From an uncultured Pseudomonadota bacterium (GTDB taxonomy: Bacteria > Vulcanimicrobiota > Vulcanimicrobiia > Eremiobacterales > Eremiobacteraceae), in contig CAWADW010000005.1 in the NCBI GenBank assembly GCA_963781145.1, forward strand, positions 504,423 through 568,422: a DNA stretch of 64,000 bases. Direction: 5' to 3'. Position numbers and translations under genes: made by a program. The notes below the pieces were generated by a model. It ran no database searches. It was not told the origin of the DNA and worked only from the letters and a program-made list of their open reading frames with translations. Every line of letters starts with the position of its first letter. Position 1 is the stretch's first letter. Below are positions 28,563 to 58,467 of the stretch, in pieces.

Positions 28563-30137
28563 TTAGACTTCCATCACCACGGGCACGATCATGGGGCGCC
28601 GCTTCGTCCGATCGTAAATGAATTTTTGCAATTCTTTATGCACGTGCTCGCGAATGGTGGTCCATTCGGTGAGTCCTTCCTTGGCGCCGCGCTCCATGAT
28701 GCTAACTGCTTCACGCCGCACTTCCTCTAAGACCCCGTCTCCGTCCGACGATCCATACGTGAATCCGCGTGAGGTAATATCCGGACCGGCTAATACTTTG
28801 CCGTCCTCGCTATCGACGGTAACGGTTACCACGATCATGCCATCGCCCGATAGATGTCGCCGATCCCGTAATACGACGTTGCCAACATCGCCCACGCCCA
28901 GACCATCGACGTACACGGGCGCGCCTGAGATCCTCCCGCCAAATCGCGCACCGGAACTTGTGATTTCAAGCGCGTCGCCGTTTTCGCTCACAAATATATT
29001 TTTCGGAGAGATGCCGATACGCTCGGCTAAACGCGCGTGCTGCACGAGCATGCGATACTCACCGTGGACTGGCAAGAAATATTTCGGACGCGTTAGATTG
29101 AGCATGAGGAGCAGTTCTTCTTGGCGACCGTGACCTGAAACGTGCGCCAGGCGCTGCTGCCCGTAGATAACGTTGATCCCGAGCTTGAAGAGGTTGTTGA
29201 TCGTTCGGCCGACGCTCCGCTCGTTGCCGGGGATCGGCGTCGCCGAAATGATCACCGTGTCGCCGCGTTTGAGCTTCACTCGCTTGTAGTCGTTGGACGC
29301 CATGCGCACGAGCGCAGACATGGGCTCGCCTTGCGAGCCGGTCGTGCAGATGACAAGTTGATCGTCACGGTAGTTTTCCAGTTCGTGATCGCGAATTTGT
29401 ACGCCAGGAGCAATCTCCAGATACCCGTGCTCTAGGGCAATCGAGCTGACGTTTTGCATGCTGCGCCCTACAAAACACACTTTGCGGCCGTAGCGGCTTG
29501 CCGCATCAACCGTTTGCTGCAGCCGCGGCACGTTCGAGGCAAACATCGTGATAATGATGCGGCCCGCACATTGCGCAAAGATGTCGTTGAAGGTCTCCCC
29601 TACGACTCGCTCGGAGAGCGTGTGCCCGGGCAATTCGGCATTGGTCGAGTCCGACGCGAGCAGCAGCACGCCTTCGCGTCCATGAGCCGCAAGCGTGGCC
29701 ATGTCTGTTGGCTGGCCGTCGATTGGCGTTTGATCGAACTTGAAGTCACCCGTGTGAATCACCGTCCCCAGTGGGGTGCGAAGCGAGATGCAGCACGAGC
29801 CCGACACGCTATGGGTGACGGCGATGAAGCCAACATCGAAAGCGCCAAGCATCACCCGTTCGCCTGGGTCGACAATACGGAGATCCGCGCGCTCCAGCAA
29901 TTTGTGCTCTTTCAGCTTGCCGCGCAGTAAGGCGAGGGTGACGTCGGTGCCATACACAGGCACGTTGAGTTGAGCCAAGAAAAATGGCACGCCGCCAATA
30001 TGATCCTCGTGCGCATGGGTCAGCACGAGGCCTCGAACTTTGTTGCGCCGCTCGATAAGGTATGAGATATCGTTGATGACGAGGTCGACGCCCAGCATCT
30101 CTTCTTCTGGAAATTGGACGCCGGCATCGACGATCAC
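28563..30137 (-). CDS. rnj: ribonuclease J (metallo-beta-lactamase/beta-CASP RNase)
   Basis: HAHEDHIGG, the beta-CASP and C-terminal domains, and the C-terminal RRPMIVPVVMEV. The conserved N-terminus (SRSSIQKRPFLRVIPLGGCGEIGRNTTVY...) continues in frame up to 30242, upstream of the ORF-track GTG start. Confidence 0.85.
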   Translation of the reverse strand: MIVDAGVQFPEEEMLGVDLVINDISYLIERRNKVRGLVLTHAHEDHIGGVPFFLAQLNVPVYGTDVTLALLRGKLKEHKLLERADLRIVDPGERVMLGAFDVGFIAVTHSVSGSCCISLRTPLGTVIHTGDFKFDQTPIDGQPTDMATLAAHGREGVLLLASDSTNAELPGHTLSERVVGETFNDIFAQCAGRIIITMFASNVPRLQQTVDAASRYGRKVCFVGRSMQNVSSIALEHGYLEIAPGVQIRDHELENYRDDQLVICTTGSQGEPMSALVRMASNDYKRVKLKRGDTVIISATPIPGNERSVGRTINNLFKLGINVIYGQQRLAHVSGHGRQEELLLMLNLTRPKYFLPVHGEYRMLVQHARLAERIGISPKNIFVSENGDALEITSSGARFGGRISGAPVYVDGLGVGDVGNVVLRDRRHLSGDGMIVVTVTVDSEDGKVLAGPDITSRGFTYGSSDGDGVLEEVRREAVSIMERGAKEGLTEWTTIREHVHKELQKFIYDRTKRRPMIVPVVMEV

Positions 30138-30370: not shown

Positions 30371-30400
30371 GTAGGGGGCGATTTTCCAATCGCCCCCTAC
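30371..30400. repeat. REP-like palindromic element, family A (GTAGGGGGCGATT-TTCC-AATCGCCCCCTAC), copy 1
   Basis: Perfect 13-bp inverted arms in an intergenic position. Confidence 0.7.
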
Positions 30401-31585: not shown

Positions 31586-32459
31586 TTGGCGTCAACGGGA
31601 TCGATTATTTATGCCATTGTTGGGATCATTTTGGCCTTGCTTTCGCTCGCGTCGATTCAAGTCGCCAAAGCGTGGGAGAAGGCAATCGTGCTGCGGCTCG
31701 GTCGATTCCATCGCCTCGCCGGCCCAGGCATCTTCTTCATCATTCCGGCGTTCGACGCCGTTGCGTCGTGGATCGATCAACGCGTGCAGACGAGCACCTT
31801 CGTCGCCGAGCAAACGCTGACCAAAGATACCGTTCCGGTGGACGTCGACGCCGTGCTTTTCTGGGTCGTTTGGGACGCCAAGAAAGCCGCCTTGGAAGTG
31901 GCATCGTATCGCGATGCAATCGGTTGGGCCTCCCAAACAGCGCTGCGCGACATTATCGGCACCACGTTTCTCGCCGACTTGCTCTCCAATCGCCAGGCAA
32001 TTGACAGCAACCTTCAACAAGCAATCGATGGCCGCACGACTCCATGGGGCATAACGGTACAGTCGGTTGAGATTCGCGACATCAAGATTCCTGAGAACTT
32101 GCAAGACGCGATGTCGCGCCAGGCCCAGGCGGAGCGCGAGCGCCAGGCTCGCGTCGATTTTGGGCGATGCCGAGCGGCAAATCGCGGAATCCTTCCTCGA
32201 GGCCGCGAAGTCATACGCCGGGAATCCAGTCGCGCTTCATCTGCGCGCCATGAACATGCTCTACGAAGGACTCAAGGAAAGAGGAGCGATGATCATCGTG
32301 CCGAGTACGGCGGTCGAAACAATGGGGCTAGGCACGATCACTGGATTAGCTTCGCTGGGGACGGCGCAAGGCATCGCTTCACCCCTGTCCGGCGCGAGCG
32401 CCCCAGGCGGGGCTGACGCCGGCGCAGCTAACACCTCATCCACTACTGGAGGGTCGTAA
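31586..32459 (+). pseudogene. SPFH/band-7 (stomatin-like) protein, disrupted by a +1 frameshift near 32156
   Basis: The N-terminal frame gives ...KAIVLRLGRFHRLAGPGIFFIIP...QAQAERERQARV. The C-terminus continues in frame 32067..32459 (ILGDAERQIAESFLEAAKSYAGNPVALHLRAMNMLYEGLKE...). There is one extra G after ...CGCGTC. Confidence 0.75.
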
Positions 32460-33173
32460 ATGTTTCTTGTTGCAGTCGTTGTTGCGCCGCTGTGAGCGCT
32501 GCAGGGTCTTCCGGAGGCCGGGTACTCCGCCCGATGGCACGTACAATTATTCGATCACGCAAGCCGGCGCCCGATCGGAACGAGCACAGTCACGATCAAG
32601 AGAAGTCCTGACAATATCTCGCTCCACGAAACCGAGACGCTCGGACAGTTGAGCTACGTCGTAGACGAAACACTCGATACAAATACGCTGAATCCAAAAA
32701 CATACGTCGCAACCTATACCAAGGGGACCGGATCGCAAACCGCGCGCGTTGCGTTTGACCGACACGGGTGCGACCGTCACTTTTGATGGCGTTGCAGGCA
32801 ACGAATTTTTCGCTTTCCCGGCAGGCAACAAGAATGCGTACGTCCTCGAGTCGTCAATCATGACGGGTTTTCTCATGCTCCCAGCCCAGCTCCACGCGAG
32901 CAGGGCGAACCAATTCCTCCAAGTCATGCCGAGTGAGGTTGCCCGCCTCACCGGCCGCGTGAGCGGGCAACCGCTGGCCCGCGACCGGCTGGCCTGCCCT
33001 CAAATGACGTGTCCCTCTCGATCGGCGGGCGAGTCAGTTTCGACGAATGGTACGATCCCAATACGTACGTCTTGCACGCGGTTTCCGTGCCCATCGAAGA
33101 CGTGCTCATCCAAGCTAACAAAATAGCCCATCGGGGTCAAGGGTATGGCCGCTACATTGGTTCTGCAGGTTGA
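32460..33173 (+). pseudogene. degraded secreted-protein gene (signal peptide + beta-rich domain) with at least 4 frameshifts; lower GC
   Basis: GGAGGG-N6-ATG start encoding MFLVAVVVAPL followed by a stop. Protein-like segments then alternate between three frames (PIGTSTVTIKRSPDNISLHETETLGQLSYVVDE..., TDTGATVTFDGVAGNEFFAFPAGNKNAYVLESS..., VSLSIGGRVSFDEWYDPNTYVLHAVSVPIEDVLIQANKIAHRGQGYGRYIGSAG*). Confidence 0.35.
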
Positions 33174-33204
33174 CGCGTTAGCACTCTCGATGCTATAGTG
33201 CTAA
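33170..33204 (+). promoter_or_regulatory. heat-shock promoter: TTGACG-N18-TATAGT overlapped by a CIRCE inverted repeat TTAGCACTC-N9-TAGTGCTAA
   Basis: Matches the CIRCE consensus TTAGCACTC-N9-GAGTGCTAA at 17/18 positions. The -10 element lies inside the element, 175 bp upstream of htrA. Confidence 0.7.
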
Positions 33205-33378
33205 GGTAGCATGGATTTCGGTTCCCGACCGCATCTCGGGACATAGGGGCGGCCAGGCCAGCCCCGGCAACAATTCCGTCTATCGATCAGGTAGAAATTT
33301 TAGGCGGTCGTTCTCGCCATGGCCCTCGTGCGGGACTTCCGCGCCTTTAAGCAAGTTCATAGGAGTAGAGTAAACAAG

Positions 33379-34587
33379 ATGAGTTCGCAAACCCGCACGT
33401 CGCTCGGCTTCCTTCTTATAGGAGTGCTCGGCGTGCTCATCGGTGCAGTCGTGATCACCCTTCTCGCCCCCAAATTCTGGCCCGCGCAACAGGCGTCGCT
33501 CAGCTCGAATGTCGCGTCGGCAGAGCCCCTTGCGCCCATCGGTACGGACAATCTCGAACAGCGCATCATTAAAGTCGTCAAGCAGAGCGAGCCCTCGGTC
33601 GTGTTGATCAAGACCACCGTGCACGGGGTCCAGCAAATTTACAACCCCTTCCAAAATGATCCGTTCTTCCGCCAGTTTTTTGGCGACCAAGGCCCCCAAA
33701 GCCAATCATTTACCGTCCAAGCGTCTGGGTCTGGGTTCGTGATCAAGCGCGAAGGCGACACAGCGTACGTGGCGACCAATGCCCACGTCGTTTATCATGC
33801 GGACAAAGTCCAAGTCTTGCTCTCAACCGGGCGCCAAGTCGACGCCGAGGTCGTGGGATCGGACGATGACGCGGACCTCGCGATTTTGAAGATTCGCGGT
33901 TCGAACTTACCATCCGCGCTGCCGCTTGGTAATTCCAGCGCTTTGCAGCAGGGCCAATTCGTGCTCGCGATTGGTGAACCGGAATCATTTCAGAACTCGG
34001 TGAGTTTGGGAATCGTTTCTGCGATCCACCGCAGCGGCATCGACGCCGGCGGTGGTGCGGGCTTCCCGACGTTCCACTACAGCGACATGATCCAAATTAC
34101 GACGCCGATTAACCCGGGCAACTCCGGTGGACCGCTCATCACAACCGGCGGCCAAGTGGTCGGCATTAATGCAGTCGTCGCCGAAGAGGCGCAGGCGATC
34201 GGGTTCTCGATTCCGATCAACGCTGCCGCGCCGGTGCTGGCGGAAATCGAAACGACCGGACATGGCATTCACGTGCAGCACCCGTTCATCGGCATTCAGA
34301 TGCGCGCACTCAATACGCAGATCGCCAACTACCTAGGTTACAATGGAGCGCAGGGCGTCGTCGTCACGGACGTCGTCGCGCAGAGCCCGGCCGACAAAGC
34401 CGGCCTGCAAGCCAGCGACATCATTTTGGAACTCAATCACCAAAAGGTCGCAAGCGCGGATCAAATCCGCAATGCCATTGCCAAGATGAAGGTGGGAGAC
34501 AAAATCACCTTGCTGGTCTGGAGAAATGGCAGCCTGCAGCCCGTCAACGTCACCCTGGGTGACCGGCCCGAGACAGTCCAAGGCTAA
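33379..34587 (+). CDS. htrA: HtrA/DegP family serine protease (S1C, trypsin-like domain + PDZ)
   Basis: N-terminal transmembrane/signal segment, TNAHVV (His), D, GNSGGPL (Ser) and a C-terminal PDZ domain. Start at MSSQTRTSLGF, preceded by AGGAG. Confidence 0.85.
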   Translation: MSSQTRTSLGFLLIGVLGVLIGAVVITLLAPKFWPAQQASLSSNVASAEPLAPIGTDNLEQRIIKVVKQSEPSVVLIKTTVHGVQQIYNPFQNDPFFRQFFGDQGPQSQSFTVQASGSGFVIKREGDTAYVATNAHVVYHADKVQVLLSTGRQVDAEVVGSDDDADLAILKIRGSNLPSALPLGNSSALQQGQFVLAIGEPESFQNSVSLGIVSAIHRSGIDAGGGAGFPTFHYSDMIQITTPINPGNSGGPLITTGGQVVGINAVVAEEAQAIGFSIPINAAAPVLAEIETTGHGIHVQHPFIGIQMRALNTQIANYLGYNGAQGVVVTDVVAQSPADKAGLQASDIILELNHQKVASADQIRNAIAKMKVGDKITLLVWRNGSLQPVNVTLGDRPETVQG

Positions 34588-34599
34588 GACGATCCCGCC

Positions 34600-34628
34600 A
34601 AGGGGCGATTTTCCAATCGCCCCCTACA
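34600..34628. repeat. REP-like element, family A, copy 2 (between htrA and dnaK)
   Basis: AAGGGGCGATTTTCCAATCGCCCCCTACA. Confidence 0.65.
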
Positions 34629-34724
34629 AACAGGTGGCCCGGGGGTCCCGGCCACTGCCAATAGAAGCACATCAGGCCGGGATACACGATATGCCCGGCC
34701 TGGTCATCAGAGGAGTAAACAAAA

Positions 34725-36588
34725 ATGGCTAAAGTTGTCGGCATTGACCTCGGGACGACCAATTCGGTTGTCGCCTACATGGAAGGCGCGACGCCAACGG
34801 TCATCACGAACGCAGAGGGAAGCCGGCTCACCCCATCCGTTGTTGCGTTCACGAAGAGCGGCGAGCGGCTCGTTGGCCAACTCGCGAAGCGGCAAGCGAT
34901 CACCAATCCCGATCGCACGATTTCGTCGATCAAGCGCTATATGGGGACCGACCACAAGGTGACAATCGACGGCAAAGCCTACACGCCGCAAGAAATTTCT
35001 GCGATGATTCTCCAGAAGCTCGCCGCAGATGCGAGTACCTACCTTGGTGAAAAAGTCACACGAGCCGTGATCACGGTGCCCGCGTACTTCAATGATGCGC
35101 AGCGCCAAGCCACGAAGGATGCCGGCCGCATCGCAGGCCTCGACGTCCTGCGCATCATCAACGAGCCGACGGCTGCCGCGCTCGCGTACGGCCTGGACAA
35201 AAAGGGCAATGAAACGATTTTGGTCTGGGATCTCGGCGGCGGAACCTTCGACGTTTCCATCCTGGAAGTTGGCGACGGTGTTTTCGAAGTTAAATCCACC
35301 AACGGCGACACGCATCTCGGTGGTGACGACTATGACAAGCGCATCGTCGATTGGCTCGTGACCGAATTCAAGAAAGATCAAGCTATCGATCTTGCCAACG
35401 ATCGCCAAGCGTTGCAGCGCCTTACCGAAGCCGCTGAGAAAGCAAAAATCGAACTCTCGTCTATGGTGCAGACCTCCATCAATTTGCCCTTCATCACGGC
35501 AGATCAGAATGGACCGAAGCATCTGGACTATACGCTGACGCGCGCTAAATTCGAACAATTGACGGCGGATCTCACGGAGCGCTGCATCAAACCTTTCGAA
35601 AACGCGATTCGCGATGCCAAACTGTCAGTCGAGGACATAAAAGAGGTCGTCTTGGTCGGCGGTGCAACGCGCATGCCCGTGGTTGTGGAACTGGTCAAGC
35701 GCCTCACCAAGAAAGATCCAAACCAAAGCGTCAATCCCGACGAAGTGGTGGCGGTGGGTGCTGCCATTCAGGCCGGCGTACTCGCAGGCGAAGTCAAAGA
35801 CGTTGTCCTGCTCGACGTTACGCCGCTCACGCTCGGACTTGAGACCCTCGGCGGCGTTCGCACGCCGCTCATCGAGCGCAATACGACGATCCCAACGCGC
35901 AAGTCGCAGACCTTTACCACGGCGGATGACGGTCAAACCTCGGTCGATATCCACGTGCTCCAGGGCGAGCGCGACATGGCGGCCGACAATAAGACGCTCG
36001 GGTCGGTTCAGACTCGAGGGCATTCCCCCGGCACCGCGCGGCGTACCGCAAGTCGAAGTGACGTTCGATATCGACGCGAACGGCATCACGCACGTTGCCG
36101 CGAAAGATCTCGGAACCGGCAAAGAGCAGCGCATCACCATCACGGCATCAAGCAACCTCAACAAAGATGAGGTCGATCGCATGGTCAAAGACGCGCAATC
36201 CCATGCTGATGAGGACAAGCGCAAGCGTGCTGAAGCAGAGATCCGCAACCAGGCGCAAACCCTCGAGTATTCGGTCGAAAGGACGCTCAAAGATCTCGGC
36301 GACAAAGTGCCGGCGTCTGACAAAGCTGACGTCGAGAAAGCGCTCGATAACGTCCGCGCGCTGCTCAAGAGCGGCAGCTCGGACGAACTCAAGCGTGCTG
36401 CCGATCGCCTGCAAGAACTCTCGTATAAGCTCGCGCAAAACGTCTATCAAAGCACGGGGCAGTCGGCCGGTGACGGGCAGCCCAATGGCGCTGCCGGCGA
36501 GCCGCAAGGAGCGCCGAGCGGCGCGACCAGCTCCGGTGGCTCGGGTCCGCAAGGCGATGTCATCGACGCTGAGTATAAAGAAACATAA
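34725..36588 (+). pseudogene. dnaK: molecular chaperone DnaK, interrupted by a single-base insertion near 36003 (probably a sequence error)
   Basis: Full DnaK N-terminus ([17 protein letters not shown]...) runs to ...ADNKTLG. The C-terminus ([28 protein letters not shown]...EYKET*) is in the +1 frame. An extra T follows CTCGGG. Confidence 0.9.
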
Positions 36589-36605: not shown

Positions 36606-37169
36606 ATGGCTGGTAGCGACGAGTTCGACTCGCTCTCGAGCGCAGCAGTTCCCGGAATCGATGAGGCGCCGGCCGATGGCCAGGCGCCTGTCGATCCGGC
36701 GAGCTCGCTGCGCGCGCAGCTCGACCGGGCCAAAGCAGAGGTGGAAGAACAGCGCAACCTGTACTTGCGCGCTCTTGCCGACTTCGAAAACTTCAAGCGA
36801 AGAACAGAGCGAGAGAGCCTCGCGCGATCCGATAGCGCTCGGCGCAAACTGCTGCTGCGCGTGCTTGACGTCTTGGATAACTTCGAGCGCGCCGCGTCCT
36901 ATCGACAGGCCGGAACGCCTCCCGATCAACTGGTGGATGGCGTCCTCGCGACGGTCAAGCAACTGGGGTCGTTGCTCGACGCCGAAGGCGTGCGGCCAAT
37001 CGAGGTTGCGGGCAAACCTTTTAACCCAACCATTTCAGAAGCAGTGGGCACGCGTTCGCAACCCGGTAAGCCCGCGAATATCGTGCTCGATGAAGCGCGC
37101 AAGGGTTATACGATCGGGGACGACTTGCTTCGCCCCGCGCAGGTTATTGTCTCGACGGCATCCGAATGA
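36606..37169 (+). CDS. grpE: nucleotide exchange factor GrpE
   Basis: The GrpE coiled-coil and beta-domain motifs (RALADFENFKRR..., GKPFNP..., GYTIGDDLLRPAQVIV). Confidence 0.9.
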   Translation: MAGSDEFDSLSSAAVPGIDEAPADGQAPVDPASSLRAQLDRAKAEVEEQRNLYLRALADFENFKRRTERESLARSDSARRKLLLRVLDVLDNFERAASYRQAGTPPDQLVDGVLATVKQLGSLLDAEGVRPIEVAGKPFNPTISEAVGTRSQPGKPANIVLDEARKGYTIGDDLLRPAQVIVSTASE

Positions 37170-37181
37170 CGGGCCGCCACT

Positions 37182-38102
37182 ATGCCCGTACAATATAAGG
37201 ACTACTACAAGACGCTTGGCGTCCCTAAGACTGCGTCGACGAAAGAGATCAAGTCGGCGTATCGCAAGCTAGCGCGTCAATGGCATCCGGATGTCAATCC
37301 AACCAAAAAGAAAGAGGCCGAGGAGAAATTCAAAGAGATCTCTGAGGCCTACGAAGTTCTAAGCGACGCCCAAAAGCGCAAGACCTACGATTCGCTCGGC
37401 AGCGACTGGCAACAGCGCGCGAGAGACTTCCAGGGCGGCGGCGTCCGTTATGGCGCACCGCCTGGTGACGGCGGCGTTCAATTCGATTTTGGCGATCTCG
37501 GCGAAGGCGGATTTTCGGAATTCTTTCAAAGCATCTTTGGAGGGATGGGCCGTCAGGGCGGTGGCTTCACCGCACGTGCGCGCCGCAGTCGCGGCTCCGA
37601 CCTAGAGAGCGAGATCGAACTCGCTCTTCGCGATGCATACTCGGGTGGCAAGCGTCATTTGAGTTTACCGAACGGGAAATCGCTCGAAGTCCAAATACCG
37701 GCCGGCGTTCGAGACGGACAGCGCATAAGGCTTGCGGGGCAAGGCGAGCCAGGTTCCGGCGGCGGCCCAAATGGCGACCTGTTTCTTGTCGTACGGATCG
37801 CCCCGGATGCAACGTTTCGGCGTGAGGGTGACGATTTGTACGTCGAGCAACCCACTAGCGTGTACACGCTGGTGCTCGGTGGCGAGGTGACGGTGCCGAC
37901 CGTGACGGGTCGAATCAAGGTCAAAGTTCCAGCCGGTTCGCAAAACGGGCGCAAGCTGCGCATTCCCGGCAAAGGGATGCCGAAGCTGCGGGGGACCGGT
38001 CACGGCGACTTGTACGTGACGCTCGTCGCCCAGGTGCCCACAAGCCTCAGCGAGCGCGAGCGCGAACTTTTCCGCGAACTCGCCGACCTCAACAAATCAT
38101 AG
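37182..38102 (+). CDS. cbpA: J-domain co-chaperone, DnaJ class II / CbpA-like (no zinc-finger domain)
   Basis: J domain with HPD ([13 protein letters not shown]), a Gly-rich linker and DnaJ C-terminal domains. No CxxCxGxG repeats. Confidence 0.8.
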
Positions 38103-39336: not shown

Positions 39337-41620
39337 TTGGCAATCGCACATACTCTTGGATTTCCCCGCATAGGCCACAAGCGAGAGCTCAAGCGCGCTC
39401 TCGAATCTTATTGGAAAGGCGACATCGGCGCAGACGATCTCAAAGCGGTGGGGCGCCAGCTCCGTAGCCGCCATTGGCAGCTGCAGCGTGATGCCGGCTT
39501 GGACAACGTTGCTGTCGGTGATTTTTCGTTTTACGACCAGATGCTCGACACGAGCGCCATGGTCGGCGCGATCCCCGCGCGTTACGGTTTCTCCGGCGAA
39601 ACCGTCGATTTCGATACATATTTTGCGATGGCACGTGGCTCAGCCGCATCGCCTGCCATGGAAATGACCAAATGGTTCGATACGAACTACCACTATATCG
39701 TTCCCGAGTTTACCCCAGAGATGTCCTTCGCGCTCCGCAGCGCAAAGATGATCGCCCAAACGCGCGAGGCGATCGACGCCGGCTTTGTCCCCAAGCCCGT
39801 GCTCATCGGTCCAGTTACCTATCTGTGGCTTGGCAAAGAGCGCGCGACAAATGGCAAGCCATTCTCGCGCTTGTCGCTTCTCGAGCGCCTGCTCCCCGTG
39901 TACCAAGAAGTGCTGCGGCAGTTGAAAGGCCTTGGCGTTCGCTTGGTTCAGATGGACGAGCCTGCGCTGGTCGCGGACTTGCCCGCTCCCTGGCAACAAG
40001 CGTATCAGAGCGCGTACGAGGTGCTTGGTGCAGCTTCGGTAGACATCTTGCTCGCCACGTACTTCGGTGCCGTTGACGAGCACATCACTTTACTTGGGTC
40101 GCTGCCGGTGGCGGGCATCCATCTGGATCTCGTGCGTTCACCCGAACAACTCGATGCTGTGCTCGGAAGCTGGCGGCCGGGCAGGTCCCTCTCGCTCGGC
40201 GTTGTTGATGGACGCAATGTCTGGCGCACCGATCTTCGGCGCGCGCTCACGCTGCTCGAACGCGCACACGACGTTGTCGACGATGTTTGGGTTGGACCGT
40301 CCTGCAGCCTTATGCACGCCCCGGTCGATCTTACCCTCGAGTCGAAACTCGATGTCGAACTGCGTTCTTGGCTTGCCTTCGCTGTGCAAAAGCTGCACGA
40401 GCTCGCGATCCTCAAACGCGGCGTCGAGCACGGCAGCGAAGCGATCGAAGACGAGCTGCAACTATCGGATATCGTGCAACGCAGCCGCGAACAATCCAAA
40501 CTTATTCACAACAAAGCTGTCGCCGAGCGGGTCGCGCATCTGACCCAAGACGACGAGCGGCGACGCGAGCGATTTTCGGACTCGGCAGCGGCGGCAGCGC
40601 GAACAGCTCAACCTGCCTGCTTTTCCCACGACCACTATCGGAAGCTTCCCACAGACGCCGGCAATTCGCGAAGCGCGAGCCAAGTTCAAGAAAACCGAAC
40701 TTGACGAGAAAGCCTACGAGAAGGCGATGCAAGCGGAGATCGAGCACGCGATTCGCGAGCAGGAAAAACTTGGCATTGACGTCCTCGTTCACGGCGAAGC
40801 TGAACGCAACGACATGGTAGAGTACTTCGGAGAGCAGCTGTCAGGCTTTGCCTTCACGCAACACGGCTGGGTGCAAAGCTATGGTTCGCGCTATGTCAAG
40901 CCGCCGATCATCTACGGGGATGTCGAACGACCGACGCCGATGACCGTTCGCTGGATCGAGTACGCCCAATCCCTGACCGACAAGCCGATGAAGGGGATGC
41001 TCACTGGACCTGTGACTATTTTGCAGTGGTCTTTTGTGCGCGACGATCAGCCCCGTTCGGAAACCGCCACGCAAATCGCTCTGGCCATCCGGGACGAGGT
41101 TCGCGATCTCGAGCACGCCGGCATCCGCATCATTCAAATCGACGAGCCCGCGTTTCGTGAAGGCTTGCCGCTCAAACGCAAAGACTGGAAATCGTACATC
41201 GAATGGGCATCGCGCGTGTTTCGGATTGCCTCCTCGCCGGTGGACGACGCTACTCAGATCCACACCCATATGTGCTACTCGGAGTTTAACGATGTCTTCG
41301 AGGTTTTGGCACTGCTTGACGCCGACGTCATTACGATCGAATCGTCGCGCAGCGGCATGGAGTTGCTCGACGCATTCAAGAAGTTTCGTTATCCAAACGA
41401 AATTGGTCCAGGCGTATACGACATCCACTCGCCGCGCATCCCGAGCTCCGAAGAAATGCACGCTCTCTTAGAGAAGGCCGCAAACTTCCTTTCGCCCGAT
41501 CAACTCTGGGTCAATCCGGATTGTGGTTTGAAGACGCGGCGCTGGGAAGAGGTTTTGCCTGCCTTGCGCAACATGGTCGCCGCGGCGAAGCGCATGCGCG
41601 GAAAAGTTGCGGCGGTTTAA
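39337..41620 (+). pseudogene. metE: cobalamin-independent methionine synthase MetE, frameshifted near 40600 (probably a sequence error)
   Basis: The N-terminal Meth_synt_1 domain runs to ...DSAAAAAR. The C-terminal domain ([19 protein letters not shown]...[13 protein letters not shown]...) is in another frame (ORF 40727..41620). The lesion is one extra base, or 2 missing, within a GCGCG run. Confidence 0.9.
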
Positions 41621-42201: not shown

Positions 42202-42226
42202 CACGCGCGAATAAAATTCGCGCGTG
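42202..42226. repeat. REP-like element, family B variant (CACGCGCGAATAAAATTCGCGCGTG)
   Basis: Palindrome related to CGCGCGAAT-TTA-TTCGCGCG, abutting two family-A copies. Confidence 0.55.
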
Positions 42227-42252
42227 GGGCGATTTTCCAATCGCCCCCTACA
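42224..42252. repeat. REP-like element, family A, copy 3
   Basis: GTGGGGCGATTTTCCAATCGCCCCCTACA. Confidence 0.7.
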
Positions 42253-42257
42253 TGATC

Positions 42258-42286
42258 GTGGGGCGATTTTCCAATCGCCCCCTACA
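42258..42286. repeat. REP-like element, family A, copy 4 (its CTAC/GTAG tetramer supplies the acs TAG stop codon)
   Basis: Identical to copy 3 and directly repeated 34 bp downstream. Overlaps the acs stop at 42282-42284. Confidence 0.7.
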
Positions 42287-44250: not shown

Positions 44251-45711
44251 CTACTGAGGGGTGGTTCCCTGCGTCTGCGGTGCGGGGCTGCTCGAGCCTG
44301 TTGCGCCAGCCGTGTTGCCTGTGCCAGTGGTGGTCGGCGGCACCGTGCCATCGTGCACCGTGGCGGCTGCAATCCGGTCCGCAATGTACGACATTGCTCG
44401 CTGCAGCTGCGTATCGGTTTCTGGTCTACCAAAATCCGCAGGTTTCACATCGTCGACCGCAATGTCCGGCGCGATGCCAACAGAGTTGATATCGCGGCCG
44501 CTTGGCGTGAGATACCGAGCTGTGGTGATCTTAATGGCGCTACCGTCCGGCAACGGATAGATGGTCTGCACGACCCCTTTGCCAAACGTTCGCGTTCCGA
44601 TGAGCACGCCAGCCCCTGAGTCTTGAATCGCGCCTGACGTAATCTCAGAAGCGCTGGCTGTGTATTCATTGACGAGCACCGCAAGCGGGAGTTGGGGAGC
44701 TGCGATGTTCTCCGCATCGTAGGTAGTCAAGGGTTTCGTGCGCGCATCGATGGACACGATCGGCCCTTCCGGGATGAAGAGCGAAGACACATCGATGGCC
44801 GCGTTGAGGTAACCACCACCGTTGTTGCGCAGATCCAAGATCACGCCTTTGACGCCTTGCTTGTCCAGCTTCTCAATCGCGCTGGCGAGCTCTTGGCCGG
44901 TCGTGAGACCGAAGACGAGCACCTGAACATACCCGATGTCGTTATCGATAACCCGCTCGCGCACGCTTGGCGCATGAATGGTTTCGCGAGTGATCATGAA
45001 GGTCATCGGCTTGGGTTCGTCTTTGCGCTGCACGGTCAGTTGCACCGTCGTGCCTGCTTTGCCGCGAATCAGCGAACTGTCTTGTTCGATGGAGAGGCCC
45101 GCGGTCGACTTGGCATCGACGTTGAGAATCACATCGCCTGCCTGAAGTCCGGCCTTGTCCGCCGGGCCGCCGTCGATCGTTTGCACGACGAGGAGCGATT
45201 TCGAAATCGGATCAACATCGAGCACGATCCCGACGCCAGCGAAGTTTCCGCCGTCCAAGCCTTCATTGAGGCTGCGAAAATCCTTGGGTGACATGAAGAC
45301 GGTCCACCGATCGTGGAGCGAGTCCATCATGCCGGCGATAGCTGCGTAGGCGAGGTTGCGGTTGCCCAAGGTCGAGCCAAACTTTTGGTCGGCAAGGGCG
45401 AGCGTGTTGTTCAGCACGGCAATGTCTGACTCGTCGCTGCCCGAACCGTGCGCGGTCGGGATTTTGTTCGGATCGCCGCCGTGGCTCTTGATGTAGTCGC
45501 GCAAGCCCGTGATGGCGCCGCTGAGGAGCGTTTGATCGGTGGTCGACTTGTAAAACTCAGAAATTGCTTGCTCGAAGGAGTAGTCCAGCATGGACCGCCC
45601 GACTTCATCGGACGACGCACGCGAGGGACTCGCGAACACACCGAAGGTCAGGCTGAATGCGAACGCCGCAGCGACGAGCCTTGCGGCGATTCTACGAATG
45701 GGTTGGGTCAT
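44251..45711 (-). CDS. S41 family C-terminal processing peptidase (CtpA-like), paralog 1
   Basis: PDZ domain (GGPADKAGLQAGDVIL) and S41 catalytic core (TASASEITSGAIQD...GKGVVQT). Pro/Thr/Gly-rich C-terminal tail. Confidence 0.85.
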   Translation of the reverse strand: MTQPIRRIAARLVAAAFAFSLTFGVFASPSRASSDEVGRSMLDYSFEQAISEFYKSTTDQTLLSGAITGLRDYIKSHGGDPNKIPTAHGSGSDESDIAVLNNTLALADQKFGSTLGNRNLAYAAIAGMMDSLHDRWTVFMSPKDFRSLNEGLDGGNFAGVGIVLDVDPISKSLLVVQTIDGGPADKAGLQAGDVILNVDAKSTAGLSIEQDSSLIRGKAGTTVQLTVQRKDEPKPMTFMITRETIHAPSVRERVIDNDIGYVQVLVFGLTTGQELASAIEKLDKQGVKGVILDLRNNGGGYLNAAIDVSSLFIPEGPIVSIDARTKPLTTYDAENIAAPQLPLAVLVNEYTASASEITSGAIQDSGAGVLIGTRTFGKGVVQTIYPLPDGSAIKITTARYLTPSGRDINSVGIAPDIAVDDVKPADFGRPETDTQLQRAMSYIADRIAAATVHDGTVPPTTTGTGNTAGATGSSSPAPQTQGTTPQ

Positions 45712-45747
45712 GCTGTTCCTCTCTTTTTATGGGGCGAGTTTTCTACG

Positions 45748-47178
45748 TTAGACGCTGGGATTTGTGAGGGCGATCTGGCGCTTCAGGTAGCGCAGGGCTG
45801 CTTGCAGCTGAGTATCTTTGCCAGTGACGCCGACGTCTCTGTAGTCCATCGGCACTACGATGTTAGGCTCGATGCCCTTTTTATTGATGTCGCGGCCGTC
45901 CGGCGTCACGTACCGCTGGGTCGTGACTTTGATTGCGCTGCCCCCCGGCAAGTCATAGATCGTCTGCACGACTCCCTTGCCAAAGGTCTTGACACCCACG
46001 AGAATCCCAATCTTTGAATCCTGGATCGCGCCGGCAGTGATCTCAGAAGCGCTGGCCGAGTATTGATTCACGAGAACGACCAGCGGGTGTGGCGGAATCG
46101 CATCTTGGTTGGCGTCATCCGTTTCCACATGCCCGTCGCGGTCGATCCGCGAAACAATTGGTCCATCCGCGATGAATTTCGACGAGATGTCCACCGCGGC
46201 ATCAAGTAGTCCTCCGCCGTTGTCGCGCAGATCCAAGACAAAGGCTTTGGCGCCTTGCTTCAGTAGCCGATCGAGCGCGTCGGTCACTTCTTGCGCCGAG
46301 TGTTCACCGAAATCGTAGAGTTGAATGTATCCGACGTTCCCGTCAATCATGTGTGACGTCATGGACGGCACTTCGATCACTTCGCGCTCGATCGCATAGT
46401 CGCGAACGTCATTCTTGCCGCGGAGAATCGTCATGTGCACCGTTGATCCCGCTTTGCCACGGATCAGGTTCATCACGAGATCGAGGTCGATGCCCTTTGT
46501 TGCTTTGCCGTCGACCGACACGATCACGTCGCCCCGCTTTAACCCTGCGCGAGCAGCCGGGGTGCCGTCAATGGGTTGGATGACGTTGACTTCGTGCGTC
46601 TTTGGATCTTTGCCGATGTACACGCCAATGCCGCCGAAATCGCCCCCTTGAATGAATTCCGAGAGTGACGTCTTGTCGCGCGGGCTCAAGAACACCGTGT
46701 ACGGATCGCGCAGCGAATCGAGCGCGCCCTCGATCGCAACGTACGTCAAATCTTGGGAGCCGGCTTGCTTGCCATAGTTGTGCAACGCCGTGGAGAGCAG
46801 GGTGTTGGCGTCTGCGTCAACTTGAGCCCCAGATGCCGAGGCGGTGATTGCCGGCAGGCTCAAGGTTCCGTTGATGTGCTTGGTCTTGAGGAACTCGAGC
46901 AAGCCTTTTCGCTCGCCACTGAGGAGCTGCGATTCATCAATGGGCTTGTAGTACACGTCGCGGACCTTATCCAGCGACATGTCGAGCATATCGAGGTCTT
47001 TTTGCTCGTCATTTCCTGCGCCCTCGCTGCCGTCAAAAGCTATGTTGCCGAGATCCCAGGCCAAAACTGCGCGCCGTTCACCCAACCGCTCGCGCAGCGG
47101 CGCGGCGTGCTGAAGCGCAAGGGTGGCTACGACCAGCGCGGCCGCAAGGGTGAAGAGAAGGAGGGCTTTACGAACCAC
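45748..47178 (-). CDS. S41 family C-terminal processing peptidase, paralog 2
   Basis: Same architecture (GTPAARAGLKRGDVIVSVDG; SASASEITAGAIQDSKIGILVGVKTFGKGVVQTI). Confidence 0.85.
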   Translation of the reverse strand: MVRKALLLFTLAAALVVATLALQHAAPLRERLGERRAVLAWDLGNIAFDGSEGAGNDEQKDLDMLDMSLDKVRDVYYKPIDESQLLSGERKGLLEFLKTKHINGTLSLPAITASASGAQVDADANTLLSTALHNYGKQAGSQDLTYVAIEGALDSLRDPYTVFLSPRDKTSLSEFIQGGDFGGIGVYIGKDPKTHEVNVIQPIDGTPAARAGLKRGDVIVSVDGKATKGIDLDLVMNLIRGKAGSTVHMTILRGKNDVRDYAIEREVIEVPSMTSHMIDGNVGYIQLYDFGEHSAQEVTDALDRLLKQGAKAFVLDLRDNGGGLLDAAVDISSKFIADGPIVSRIDRDGHVETDDANQDAIPPHPLVVLVNQYSASASEITAGAIQDSKIGILVGVKTFGKGVVQTIYDLPGGSAIKVTTQRYVTPDGRDINKKGIEPNIVVPMDYRDVGVTGKDTQLQAALRYLKRQIALTNPSV

Positions 47179-47282
47179 GGGCGGGACAGTTTCCTTTCAA
47201 TTCTGCTATTTATTTCTTCGGCGGCTGGGGTCATCATGCCCGCAATCCGCCTCCCTATCATAACGAATCGGCAGCCCGCTTG

Positions 47283-48569
47283 TTACAAGCGAGTGAGGGG
47301 GTTCACCGGTACGCCGTTCACCCGAATTTCAAAATGTAAGTGTGGTCCCGTAGCGTAGCCCGTGGCCCCGACGGCCCCGATAACCTGGCCCCGCTGAATA
47401 TGCTGATTGACCGATACGTACATTGCCGAGCAGTGAGCATAAAGCGTCGATAGTCCCGATCCGTGGTCTAGAATGATGGCATTGCCGTATCCGCCGTACC
47501 AACTTGCGTACAGGACGACGCCGTCGGCGGCTGCTTGAATCGGCGTGCCATAGTCGGCACCGATATCGATGCCCGAATGGAGCGCGTAGCGCCCGGTAAT
47601 TGGATCCACCCGCATGCCGAAAGGCGAGGTGATCGGACCTCGCACAGGCCACGCAAAGACGACCGGACCGAATTCCGAACAGACGGGCGGAGCCAGACCC
47701 GCCGCCATCGCAGCCATCCGACGAGCTTGGCAAGCCTCGTATCGGGCGCGCAGCGTGACCGCCTCGTCCTCGCGCTGTTTTTCTTGGATCAACGCCTGGA
47801 GCCGGGCCTCCTCCGCAGCGCTCAACCCTTCAAGCTCGTACACCTGTTGGGCGATGATCGAGCGCTGACTTGACGCAATAGCAAGCAAGGAGCGTCGCTG
47901 GTCGGCGAGTTGGCCAAGCTCCTGCTTGCGTGCAAGCTCGTCTTCTTGCTCTCGCACCAACGCTGCTTGCGTGCTCTCCAAGCCGAGCACGATCGTTTCG
48001 TAACGCGCTTGCTCGGAGTTCACCGTCGCGATGAGCCGCGAGTCGGAACGCAAAATAGCGCGGATGAAATCCCAGCGTTCGATAAAGTCGACGAATGAGG
48101 TCGCACTCAAAAGCACGTCGAGGTACGATGTTGCGCTCCCGTATTCATACACGTCAACAATCCGGTGATTGAGCGCATCGCGATGGCGGTCGAGACTGGC
48201 TTGCGCGGCTGCAAGTTGGCGTTTGCGAATAGCCAAGCGCAGTTGCGTCTGTGTAATGGCGCTGCCAAGCGCACCCAAATCGCCGCGCACCCGAATAATG
48301 CTGTACTGCACGGATTCGAGTTGTTGCGAGATCGTCTGCTCTTTGAAGCGCGCGACGTGGAGTTTGAGACGGCTCTCGTGCAGCTTACGCTGCGTTGCCT
48401 CGAGCAGCGCTTTCTTTTCTTGAATCTTTTCGCTGATCGGCACCGGGGTCGCGGCCAGCGCGACCGGTGCGAATGCGCTTGCAAATGGCTGGACACTAAG
48501 GATGACAACCGCGAGGACAACAAGACGTAGTCGCGCGAATTTATTCGCGCGTGCGCGCTGGATGTTCAA
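47283..48569 (-). CDS. M23 family metallopeptidase with N-terminal coiled coil (EnvC-like murein hydrolase activator)
   Basis: Signal peptide, long coiled-coil region and a C-terminal LytM/M23 domain (HSGIDIGADYGTPI...GPHLHFE). TTG start overlaps the ftsX stop. Confidence 0.8.
   Translation of the reverse strand: MNIQRARANKFARLRLVVLAVVILSVQPFASAFAPVALAATPVPISEKIQEKKALLEATQRKLHESRLKLHVARFKEQTISQQLESVQYSIIRVRGDLGALGSAITQTQLRLAIRKRQLAAAQASLDRHRDALNHRIVDVYEYGSATSYLDVLLSATSFVDFIERWDFIRAILRSDSRLIATVNSEQARYETIVLGLESTQAALVREQEDELARKQELGQLADQRRSLLAIASSQRSIIAQQVYELEGLSAAEEARLQALIQEKQREDEAVTLRARYEACQARRMAAMAAGLAPPVCSEFGPVVFAWPVRGPITSPFGMRVDPITGRYALHSGIDIGADYGTPIQAAADGVVLYASWYGGYGNAIILDHGSGLSTLYAHCSAMYVSVNQHIQRGQVIGAVGATGYATGPHLHFEIRVNGVPVNPLTRL
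48526..48550. repeat. REP-like element, family B (GTAGTCGCGCGAATTTATTCGCGCG), located inside the N-terminal coding region of the M23 gene
   Basis: Exact family-B sequence. It encodes RARANKFARL of the signal-peptide n-region. Confidence 0.6.
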
Positions 48570-49453
48570 GCGGTCTTCAGGTATCGTCCGATAGAGAGCA
48601 TGCTCGAAAGCATCCCAACAAGGACGCCGACCAAAACCAGTTCGAGCGCGAGGTGCGGCAGCGGTACGCTTGCCGGATTGAACGGAATAAACGGCAGATT
48701 GAGAATGAATTTGGGAGCCAGCGAGCGATAGCCCGCGTCCAAGACCAGCAATCCGATGGTTGCCCCGAAGAGTCCTGAGAGAATGCCTTCGAACACGAAC
48801 GGCCAGCGCACAGCCCAGCCGGTTGCGCCGACCAGTTGCATAATGCCAATCTCGCGCTGCCGCGCGAACACCGTGAGGCGAATCGTATTGTACATGATCA
48901 GCGCCGTAGCCAAGAGCAGCAGTGCCACGACGCCAAGCCCTGCCGCGCTAAAGAGCGCCTCGGCTCGGAGCAGCTTCTGGGTCACGCTGCTGCCGTAGTT
49001 AATATTGGCCACCCCAGGTTTGTGGCCCATTTCCCCGGCAAGCGGGGGAACGTCCGTCGGCGCATACGTGTGGACGACAATGGTGTTTGGCAACGGATTA
49101 GTATTGAGAAGTCCCAAATTAAATTGGCCGCGCAGCGACTGACGCAGATTGATCATGGCGCGCTTCTTGCTCACATAGCGAACTGTGTCCACCCGCGGGT
49201 CTGCTTGCAGCGACCGGATGAGCGCATCGACGTCCGGACCCTTCGCGTCATCCCGAAGATAGATCGCGATTGCGACTTGACCGACGATGTTCTTCATCAC
49301 GATGTCGAACGACGTTCGCAGGAACAAGAAAACGCCAAGCAAGATGATGGAGATAGCGATCGTGCCGATGGCGGTGAGTGCCATCGTGATGTTCCGCGTG
49401 AAGTTTTGGGCCACCTCAGCCCAAAAAAAACGAACCTTACCCCAGTCCAACAT
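48566..49453 (-). CDS. ftsX: cell division permease FtsX
   Basis: FtsX topology (TM1, large periplasmic loop, three C-terminal transmembrane helices) and the conserved C-terminus. Internal start MLDWGKVRFF chosen to limit overlap with ftsE. Confidence 0.85.
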   Translation of the reverse strand: MLDWGKVRFFWAEVAQNFTRNITMALTAIGTIAISIILLGVFLFLRTSFDIVMKNIVGQVAIAIYLRDDAKGPDVDALIRSLQADPRVDTVRYVSKKRAMINLRQSLRGQFNLGLLNTNPLPNTIVVHTYAPTDVPPLAGEMGHKPGVANINYGSSVTQKLLRAEALFSAAGLGVVALLLLATALIMYNTIRLTVFARQREIGIMQLVGATGWAVRWPFVFEGILSGLFGATIGLLVLDAGYRSLAPKFILNLPFIPFNPASVPLPHLALELVLVGVLVGMLSSMLSIGRYLKTA

Positions 49454-50127
49454 GATAACGTCCGCGCTCTTCGTCGCGCGCGATGCGGCCATTGACCAAG
49501 CGCACGACCCGGCGCCGCATGCGGTCGACGATGGCTTGATTGTGGGTGGCGACGATCGTCGTCGTGCCCTTGGCGTTGATGCGCGAGAGCAGCGCCATGA
49601 TTTCGCTCGAGGTCTCGGGGTCGAGGTTGCCGGTGGGTTCGTCGCACAAGAGAATGAGGGGATTGTTGACGAGCGAGCGCGCGATGGCTACGCGCTGCTG
49701 CTCTCCGCCGGAGAGCTCTTGGGGAAACATCTTGGCTTTGTGCGCGATGCCGACGAGCTCCAGCATGCGAGGAACGCGCCGCAGCACTTCGCGAGAGCTC
49801 GCCCCCGTCACTTGCAAAGCGTAAGCAACATTTTCCCACACCGTCTTTTGATAAAGCAGTTTGAAATCTTGAAAGACGACGCCAACCTTGCGCCGCAAGA
49901 ACGGAACGTCCCCGGGGCGCAGCGTCGTGAGACTCTGACCATCGACCTCGACGGTCGCCTTCGGTGGGCCGCACCTCGCGGATAATGCACGAAAGCAGGC
50001 TCGACTTACCCTGCCCCGTGCTGCCGACCAGGAACATGAACTCGCCGCGGGCGACCGTGAGCGAAATCTCGGTCAGCGCGTGAACGCCGTTCGGGTAGAC
50101 GAGGCTGACGTCTCGAAAAACGATCAT
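49437..50127 (-). pseudogene. ftsE: cell division ATP-binding protein FtsE, frameshifted near 49955 (probably a sequence error)
   Basis: N-terminus MIVFRDVSLVYPNGVHALTEISLTV..GSTGQGKSSLL (Walker A) in ORF 49297..50127, up to ...RPTEG. The remainder (ATVEVDGQSLTT...[15 protein letters not shown]...[11 protein letters not shown]) is in frame 49437..49898. Confidence 0.85.
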
Positions 50128-58435: not shown

Positions 58436-58467
58436 CTGTGCGGGCGATTTTCCAATCGCCCTCTACA
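58436..58467. repeat. REP-like element, family A, degenerate copy 5
   Basis: GTGCGGGCGATTTTCCAATCGCCCTCTACAT. Confidence 0.55.

Follow-up and report, generated by a model that had tools for sequence, protein, structure and literature searches.

The window analysed here is a stretch of 64,000 nucleotides (contig CAWADW010000005.1, positions 504,423 to 568,422 of the forward strand) from an uncultured member of the Eremiobacterota, the phylum also known as WPS-2 that is named Vulcanimicrobiota in the current NCBI taxonomy (kingdom Bacillati). On its forward strand the window carries htrA, encoding a serine protease, followed by the chaperone genes dnaK, grpE and dnaJ, and upstream of htrA lies a copy of CIRCE, the inverted repeat that controls the expression of chaperones, which is the operator of the repressor HrcA. 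HrcA and CIRCE are among the most conserved repressor-operator pairs of bacteria, with a direct regulon that usually consists of the groE and dnaK operons. The Eremiobacterota are almost uncultured, and now have one cultured member, Vulcanimicrobium. The features on which the argument depends are the CIRCE operator and a predicted promoter, here called P1, with which it overlaps:

33178 to 33204, no strand assigned: CIRCE operator TTAGCACTC-N9-TAGTGCTAA, 17/18 against the consensus.
33170 to 33175, forward strand: -35 hexamer TTGACG of P1, found by the promoter scan and also present in 16/16 distinct relatives, 1-3 nt before CIRCE.
33191 to 33199, forward strand: extended -10 element TGc-TATAGT of P1, within the CIRCE spacer and right arm, found by the promoter scan.

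When the consensus TTAGCACTC-N9-GAGTGCTAA was searched through the window with up to 3 mismatches, the sole match in the 64 kb was the one at 33178-33204, which has 1 mismatch; the number expected from shuffled sequence is 0.01. The arms are inverted repeats of 9 bp, and the spacer between them is exactly 9 bp long. The promoter scan identified TTGACG-18-TATAGT at 33170-33199, with 10/12 matches and a TG that extends the -10 element, and the letters from 33170 to 33204 accordingly read TTGACG-cg-TTAGCACTC-tcgatgcta-TAGTGCTAA. Both analyses bear out the original prediction that a CIRCE matching at 17 of 18 positions is laid over the -10 region of TTGACG-N18-TATAGT, and CIRCE is thus found on a vegetative-sigma promoter of a chaperone operon with dnaK, grpE and dnaJ. 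The -10 hexamer (33194-33199) is made up of the final two bases of the spacer and the first four bases of the right arm, and the hexamer owes its sequence TATAGT, in place of TAGAGT, to the lone mismatch to the CIRCE consensus, a change of G to T at 33196. The same bases thus encode both operator and promoter. This is a clean dual-function sequence, in which one base is both the operator's sole mismatch and part of the -10 hexamer.

The comparison set consisted of 18 Eremiobacterota htrA loci with 16 distinct upstream sequences, the HtrA proteins of which show 56-100% identity to that of the window. Diverse orthologues were collected by protein search and exact-protein look-ups, and a single-protein metagenome scan added 3 Eremiobacterota loci. 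Eleven loci encode an HtrA that is 73-100% identical to that of the window, and eight, obtained by exact-protein look-up, encode one that is 56-64% identical. Those relatives that come from GTDB genomes are labelled Candidatus Eremiobacteraeota or Eremiobacter antarcticus, some being misnamed 'proteobacterium' or 'Acidiferrales'. All 18 loci have TTGACG, followed after 1-3 nt by a CIRCE with at most 2 mismatches, at 193-237 nt upstream of the htrA ATG, and each Eremiobacterota locus has one CIRCE only, even if as many as 4 mismatches are allowed. With the 16 sequences anchored on CIRCE, the majority-base identity amounted to 0.97 in the arms and 0.90 in the spacer, and it was 0.44 in the 30 nt upstream and 0.48 in the 30 nt downstream. 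CIRCE is, in other words, a conserved island in the orthologous promoters of 16 distinct lineages. The claim that htrA had been recruited under CIRCE is supported by these data, since CIRCE and the promoter are kept in 18/18 loci down to an HtrA identity of 56%, with the flanks having diverged.

The variation that does occur within the site is informative as well. Among the relatives, the -10 hexamer within the right arm reads TATAGT, TACACT or TAAACT, and even the off-consensus right arms CACTGCTAA and AACTGCTAA retain A2 and T6 of this hexamer. Such right-arm variants, preserving A2 and T6, are the outcome that would be expected from dual selection. The sequence of the CIRCE spacer is normally free, and its conservation here would be explained by the extended -10 element that it carries. 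At the level of strains, the window was compared with a 759-kb metagenome contig from ENA (the sister contig), which an exact-protein look-up had identified; the two are 99.4% identical, and their alignment has 33 gap openings. Within htrA (33465-34542) there are 8 nt differences between the window and the sister contig (L128), all of which are synonymous, as the proteins are 100% identical, and indels crowd the DNA directly upstream of the -35 hexamer (33128-33164). Synonymous changes in htrA together with indel-rich DNA upstream read as a sharp footprint even at this level.

Outside the Eremiobacterota, no CIRCE with up to 3 mismatches was detected at any of 108 htrA/hhoA loci (1.11 Mb), most of which were cyanobacterial. 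Conservation in 18 loci and the absence from these 108 therefore indicate that this CIRCE is real, under selection and specific to this group of orthologues. The group itself is sharply bounded: its members are 55-100% identical and have ~400 amino acids, and matches beyond it fall to at most 43% identity and are DegQ-like proteins of ~500 amino acids.

The genes of the unit, all of which are encoded by the forward strand, are as follows:

33379 to 34587, forward strand: htrA, encoding a membrane-anchored serine protease of the S1C family, 402 amino acids long and with a single PDZ domain (Pfam Trypsin_2, PDZ_2).
34725 to 36588, forward strand: dnaK, with HSP70 matches on two overlapping open reading frames, split by an extra C at 35999.
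36606 to 37169, forward strand: grpE (Pfam GrpE).
37182 to 38102, forward strand: class II J-protein gene, DnaJ/CbpA-like without a zinc-finger domain (Pfam DnaJ and DnaJ_C only).

Of two possible starts of htrA, 33319 and the ATG at 33379, the latter is the more probable, since an AGGAG ribosome-binding site precedes it, and the gene calls of sister contigs (L001, L128) start htrA at the ATG equivalent to 33379. HtrA matches the NCBIfam Do and HhoA-HhoB-HtrA models below their cut-offs, and its N-terminus is a hydrophobic anchor, which argues that the protease is exported or membrane-bound. The J-protein likewise fails to reach the cut-off of either NCBIfam model, DnaJ or CbpA. Order and orientation of htrA-dnaK-grpE-dnaJ are invariant in every locus long enough to show them. 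Six relatives have a divergently oriented gene upstream of htrA, and the promoter of the operon must therefore lie in the intergenic region that bears CIRCE. The idea that htrA is the first gene of an htrA-dnaK-grpE-cbpA unit is supported by this synteny and by the gaps of 50-155 nt between htrA and dnaK, and co-transcription of the genes from htrA to dnaJ would be the simplest reading.

We consider it probable, with a probability of about 0.72, that an HrcA-type repressor bound at CIRCE controls the sigma-A-type promoter P1 of the htrA-dnaK-grpE-dnaJ operon. The sequence features, their conservation and the synteny are direct observations; from these, we infer HrcA binding, co-transcription and the further promoter P2 that is described below. 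The palindrome would be a functional CIRCE, recognised by an HrcA-type repressor and merged with a strong sigma-A-type promoter in such a way that the left arm adjoins the -35 hexamer, with the extended -10 element falling within the spacer and the right arm. HrcA bound there at normal temperature would keep RNA polymerase from the promoter. Upon stress, unfolded proteins would titrate GroEL, HrcA would be released and P1 would fire, giving rise to a polycistronic htrA-dnaK-grpE-dnaJ transcript by which an exported quality-control protease would be induced jointly with the cytoplasmic Hsp70 system. As for the GC hairpins that lie between htrA and dnaK and lack a T tract, their most likely role would be to adjust mRNA stability or partial termination for the two segments, and not to divide the unit into two operons. 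Lastly, P2, a promoter of the type used by extracytoplasmic function (ECF) sigma factors, may be located in the 175-nt leader and would add an HrcA-independent input for envelope stress.

Some observations weigh against this interpretation. CIRCE is located ~200 nt from the start codon, beyond the range of -49 to -81 observed in delta-proteobacteria (PMC545781). The strong hairpins before dnaK (z = -4.69) could terminate some transcripts, and in the window the P2 motif is no more frequent than chance predicts (3 observed versus 3.0 expected). Furthermore, tblastn searches identified no hrcA gene in the window or in the 129 fetched loci (1.47 Mb), a set that does not cover whole Eremiobacterota genomes. 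The probes were a sequence resembling B. subtilis HrcA (E = 4.6e-28 against PDB 1STZ) and T. maritima HrcA (1STZ) itself, neither of which gave a match in the window at E ≤ 5, in agreement with the earlier statement that the window holds no hrcA gene. Extension of the right flank through the sister contig brought to light an ECF sigma factor gene and no hrcA, and a search of the literature on Eremiobacterota together with HrcA or chaperones yielded nothing useful. The case for HrcA is made by the operator itself, because its sequence matches the consensus seen throughout bacteria and purifying selection on it is strong.

The leader between the predicted start of P1 transcription (~33206) and the htrA ATG is ~175 nt long and contains two conserved elements:

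33237 to 33243, forward strand: leader block CGGGACA (YGGGACR), in 16/16 sequences, 30-35 nt after CIRCE.
33266 to 33295, forward strand: candidate promoter P2, ECF-sigma-like GGCAAC-N18-GGTAGA, identified by leader conservation.

Promoters of ECF sigma factors have the general shape 'AAC ... GT', and htrA/degP is a classic ECF target in proteobacteria. The pattern G[GC]AAC-N16-18-GGTA was present in 16/16 leaders with a conserved spacing and a spacer sequence that is not conserved; the 'AAC' and 'GT' blocks are thus kept 16-18 bp apart in the orthologous promoters. Two short blocks at a fixed spacing with a free spacer constitute a promoter-like signature. The ECF sigma factor gene of the sister contig encodes a protein of 207 amino acids with regions 2 and 4_2 (L130, 5615-6238, reverse strand). 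It is located ~2.2 kb past the right end of the window and ~32 kb from the leader motif, and is followed by genes for proteins of 154 and 319 amino acids. GAAAC-N17-GGTATC, upstream of this sigma factor gene (L130, 6239-6310), resembles the leader motif, this being a single sequence that was found post hoc. Taken together, the odds that P2 is a second, ECF-type promoter in the leader appear to be even. A wider regulon of ECF-like sites in the window was considered and rejected, as the counts of the motif equal chance.

Alternatively, the leader blocks YGGGACR and G[GC]AAC...GGTA could be parts of a structured RNA that acts in cis, for instance a thermometer, an attenuator or a protein-binding leader, and not of P2. 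This view is favoured by GC hairpins, variable in sequence, that are found between the blocks and after them, by a terminator-like hairpin with a T run in four distant relatives, and by the leader of L121, which folds better than its shuffles (z = -2.37). However, a scan of the window against Rfam gave no match, RNAalifold did not yield a consensus structure for 7 or for 15 leaders (with -0.09 kcal/mol and 3 pairs for the 15), and the leader of the window folds no better than shuffled sequences (z = +0.44). Structured RNA was for these reasons rejected as the main explanation of the window leader. YGGGACR is nearly invariant in sequence across the 16 lineages, and its pairing partners vary by clade. 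The fixed spacing of the other two blocks around a free spacer is a promoter signature, and a similar motif precedes the ECF sigma factor gene. A structured RNA in place of P2 is, in our judgement, rather unlikely, though it fares better than the other alternatives to be discussed.

Two further observations concern the leader. The terminator-like hairpin with its T run (GGCGGCGAACGCCGCC-TTTTTT) is located at 9930-9951 of L121, similar ones are found in L122, L125 and L127, and in these four distant relatives it lies ~50-70 nt before the htrA start codon; the window does not have it. This suggests attenuation, or a short leader transcript, that would be confined to that clade. A conserved small open reading frame in the leader was rejected, since the 11-codon frame starting with an ATG at 33211 is not retained in L003.

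The spacer between htrA and dnaK bears on whether P1 would serve the whole unit. In the window it folds into three hairpins (z = -4.69), none of which has a T tract:

34602 to 34623, no strand assigned: palindrome GGGGCGATTTTCCAATCGCCCC of 22 bp, resembling repetitive extragenic palindromic (REP) elements, first hairpin of the spacer.
34634 to 34655, forward strand: second GC hairpin, GTGGCCCGGG-GGT-CCCGGCCAC, common only to the closest relatives.
34673 to 34702, forward strand: third hairpin, CAGGCCGGG...CCCGGCCTG, 8 nt before the dnaK Shine-Dalgarno sequence and without a T tract.

The statement that dnaK is preceded by a REP element and a GC-rich hairpin was thus correct, with two GC hairpins following the REP-like palindrome before dnaK is reached. 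This palindrome occurs in 5 copies in the window, 4 of them exact, against an expectation of 0.01. The copies (30375-30396, 34602-34623, 42226-42247, 42260-42281 and 58441-58462) are all located at or just past the boundaries of listed open reading frames. Close relatives differ in whether their htrA-dnaK spacer contains it, and it therefore behaves as a mobile or unstable extragenic repeat. A hairpin at the third position is retained with altered sequence in L006, L008, L121 and L122; in L006, for example, GGCC/GGCC is changed to GACC/GGTC.

It is conceivable that the CIRCE promoter serves htrA only, that the hairpins terminate its transcripts and that dnaK-grpE-dnaJ has an unrecognised promoter of its own, located either within the 3' end of htrA or between htrA and dnaK. 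The three stable hairpins would fit such an arrangement, as would a weak promoter-like site in the 3' end of htrA (34478-34505, 9/12 matches) and the fact that DnaK is normally required at a high basal level. On the other hand, the hairpins are devoid of T tracts, and the spacer of L085 is only 50 nt long and without a strong hairpin, that of L120 measuring 62 nt. No CIRCE, no HAIR (the HspR-associated inverted repeat) and no promoter motif conserved across lineages was found in the htrA-dnaK spacers of the Eremiobacterota loci compared, these spacers being 50-155 nt long. Moreover, gene order and orientation do not vary in any lineage, and the Firmicutes, too, have dnaK inside an operon that CIRCE controls. 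A promoter serving htrA alone is therefore judged improbable, and control of the entire operon by P1 is preferred.

A different question is whether HrcA would be the protein that binds the palindrome. HspR at the end of the operon is an arrangement known from the dnaK operons of Streptomyces and Mycobacterium, and in 11 relatives (L006, L007, L008 and L120-L127) dnaJ is followed by a MerR-family gene for a protein of 87-90 amino acids (for instance L120 14835-15104, L121 14873-15142, L123 14733-15005 and L008 10868-11134). The best NCBIfam model for this protein is HspR, with 61.8 bits against a cut-off of 105, and there are matches to Pfam MerR_1 and to MerR_2, the family of CbpM, as well. 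Classically, HspR is an autoregulated repressor whose gene closes the operon (PMC6032397), and this arrangement, along with the failure to find hrcA in the window and the 129 loci, would favour a regulator other than HrcA, such as this HspR-like protein, or a relic without a partner. However, tblastn with the relatives' protein detected no such gene in the window, which consequently does not show the order dnaK-grpE-dnaJ-hspR. No HspR-like gene belongs to the operon in the window, L001/L128, L003 or L005, and CIRCE is unchanged there. CIRCE, being intact in this clade, is therefore independent of that protein. Furthermore, the palindrome has the pan-bacterial HrcA consensus and not that of HAIR, and a search for CTTGAGT-N7-ACTCAAG with up to 3 mismatches revealed no HAIR near the operon in the window or in any relative, for which reason control of the operon by HspR through HAIR was rejected. 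For a relic, 97% conservation of the arms across lineages with flanks at ~45% would be unexpected. A non-HrcA regulator or a relic is, taken together, very unlikely. That the CIRCE match arose by chance, for which only the fact that it is a single site could be adduced, is refuted by its conservation in 18/18 orthologous loci, apart from the expectation of 0.01 per window, and its probability is negligible.

Several genes of the window are broken by frameshifts. Relative to the sister contig, which is 99% identical, dnaK of the window is split by the one extra C at 35999 (GACGCT[C]GGGTCG). The gene is intact in all relatives and encodes ~620 amino acids (620 in L001 and L128), and the split is most likely an assembly indel, neither a pseudogene nor a programmed frameshift. 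Also broken in the window and intact in the sister contig are metE (39337-41620), the gene for RNase J (28563-30137) and a gene of 222 amino acids upstream of htrA (32455-33126). Conversely, ftsK is broken in the sister contig (L128, 1554-3502) and intact in the window. This reciprocity points to indel errors of long-read assemblies rather than pseudogenes. Downstream of dnaJ, a gene for an acyl-CoA dehydrogenase follows after 37 nt and metE after a further 15 nt, and no terminator was predicted. The other open reading frames scanned in the window are housekeeping genes, such as secA, ftsK, mnmA and sucCD, with no further chaperone gene among them. A module resembling FtsEX-PcsB, which relates to cell-wall hydrolysis, is located near the operon on the reverse strand (44251-49492); here, genes for FtsX and for an M23 peptidase whose coiled coil resembles that of PcsB adjoin a tandem pair of S41 C-terminal processing peptidases.

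If these observations are extended to the phylum, the Eremiobacterota as a whole appear to place an exported HtrA protease at the top of the dnaK operon under HrcA/CIRCE, which would couple envelope and cytoplasmic proteostasis. This is a concrete regulatory prediction for the Eremiobacterota that can be tested. A more elaborate and decidedly tentative proposal, which we regard as doubtful, is that tandem inputs converge on one unit, namely a sigma-A promoter gated by HrcA/CIRCE for unfolded protein in the cytoplasm and an ECF-sigma promoter for envelope stress. In most members, these would be joined by an HspR-like regulator that acts through a new operator or through CbpM-like modulation of the J-protein. 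Such an architecture would be one that has not been described in cultured models.

The closest known counterpart is the hrcA-grpE-dnaK-dnaJ operon of Bacillus subtilis, Geobacter, Helicobacter and numerous other bacteria, where an operator with arms of 9 bp and a spacer of 9 bp is also placed over a vegetative-sigma promoter and where dnaK is also internal to a multi-gene heat-shock operon (PMC545781; PMC6032397). Unlike that operon, the unit described here begins with htrA and not with hrcA, has the order dnaK-grpE-dnaJ instead of grpE-dnaK-dnaJ, and has its operator ~200 nt from the first start codon, with a long leader and with hrcA not being in the neighbourhood. The actinobacterial dnaK-grpE-dnaJ-hspR operon, for which HAIR serves as the control site (Bucca et al., cited in PMC6032397), shares its gene order with the Eremiobacterota unit, and most of the relatives have the small HspR-like MerR gene at its end. 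It differs in that here CIRCE takes the place of HAIR and htrA is prefixed, and in that the relatives' protein has no more than 87-90 amino acids, scores below the HspR cut-off (61.8 versus 105 bits) and is not encoded in the operon of the window's clade.

In Helicobacter pylori and Campylobacter jejuni, which employ both HrcA and HspR, CIRCE likewise covers the core promoter (PMC6032397; PMC7464140). In H. pylori, HrcA binds over the core promoter and HspR elsewhere on the same operons, and cbpA adjoins hspR (PMC6032397). Similarly, the gene for the CbpA-like J-protein adjoins the HspR-like gene in the relatives, which would allow two repressors to act on one operon. In contrast to these two species, no HspR operator was found here, and the window has no hspR-like gene. 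A likeness also exists to the proteobacterial degP/htrA promoters that depend on the ECF factor sigma-E, as htrA is preceded by 'AAC ... GT' blocks at an ECF-like spacing. Unlike in those promoters, the motif is here a predicted one, lies downstream of a CIRCE-controlled sigma-A promoter, and would give a transcript to which the cytoplasmic Hsp70 genes are added.

Lastly, the unit may be viewed as an expansion of the HrcA regulon. The only constant member of this regulon is groES-groEL, and rpoH is a lineage-specific addition in Geobacter (PMC545781), as are phoH and CT_016 in Chlamydiae (PMC4652624). A literature search, which was not exhaustive, revealed no paper that links CIRCE directly to htrA; PMC6527527 and PMC8762339 draw no such link, and none is suggested by the titles and abstracts of the other papers listed. 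The CIRCE itself is canonical and its place is not, since it heads an htrA-dnaK-grpE-dnaJ(-hspR-like) operon characteristic of the Eremiobacterota. The mechanism itself is ordinary, and the result is an incremental one rather than a new mechanism. As with rpoH of Geobacter and phoH and CT_016 of Chlamydiae, a perfect or near-perfect CIRCE that is conserved within the lineage precedes a gene outside groE and dnaK. Unlike in those cases, the product of the recruited gene is an extracytoplasmic protease, and the gene has been fused into the very operon of dnaK.

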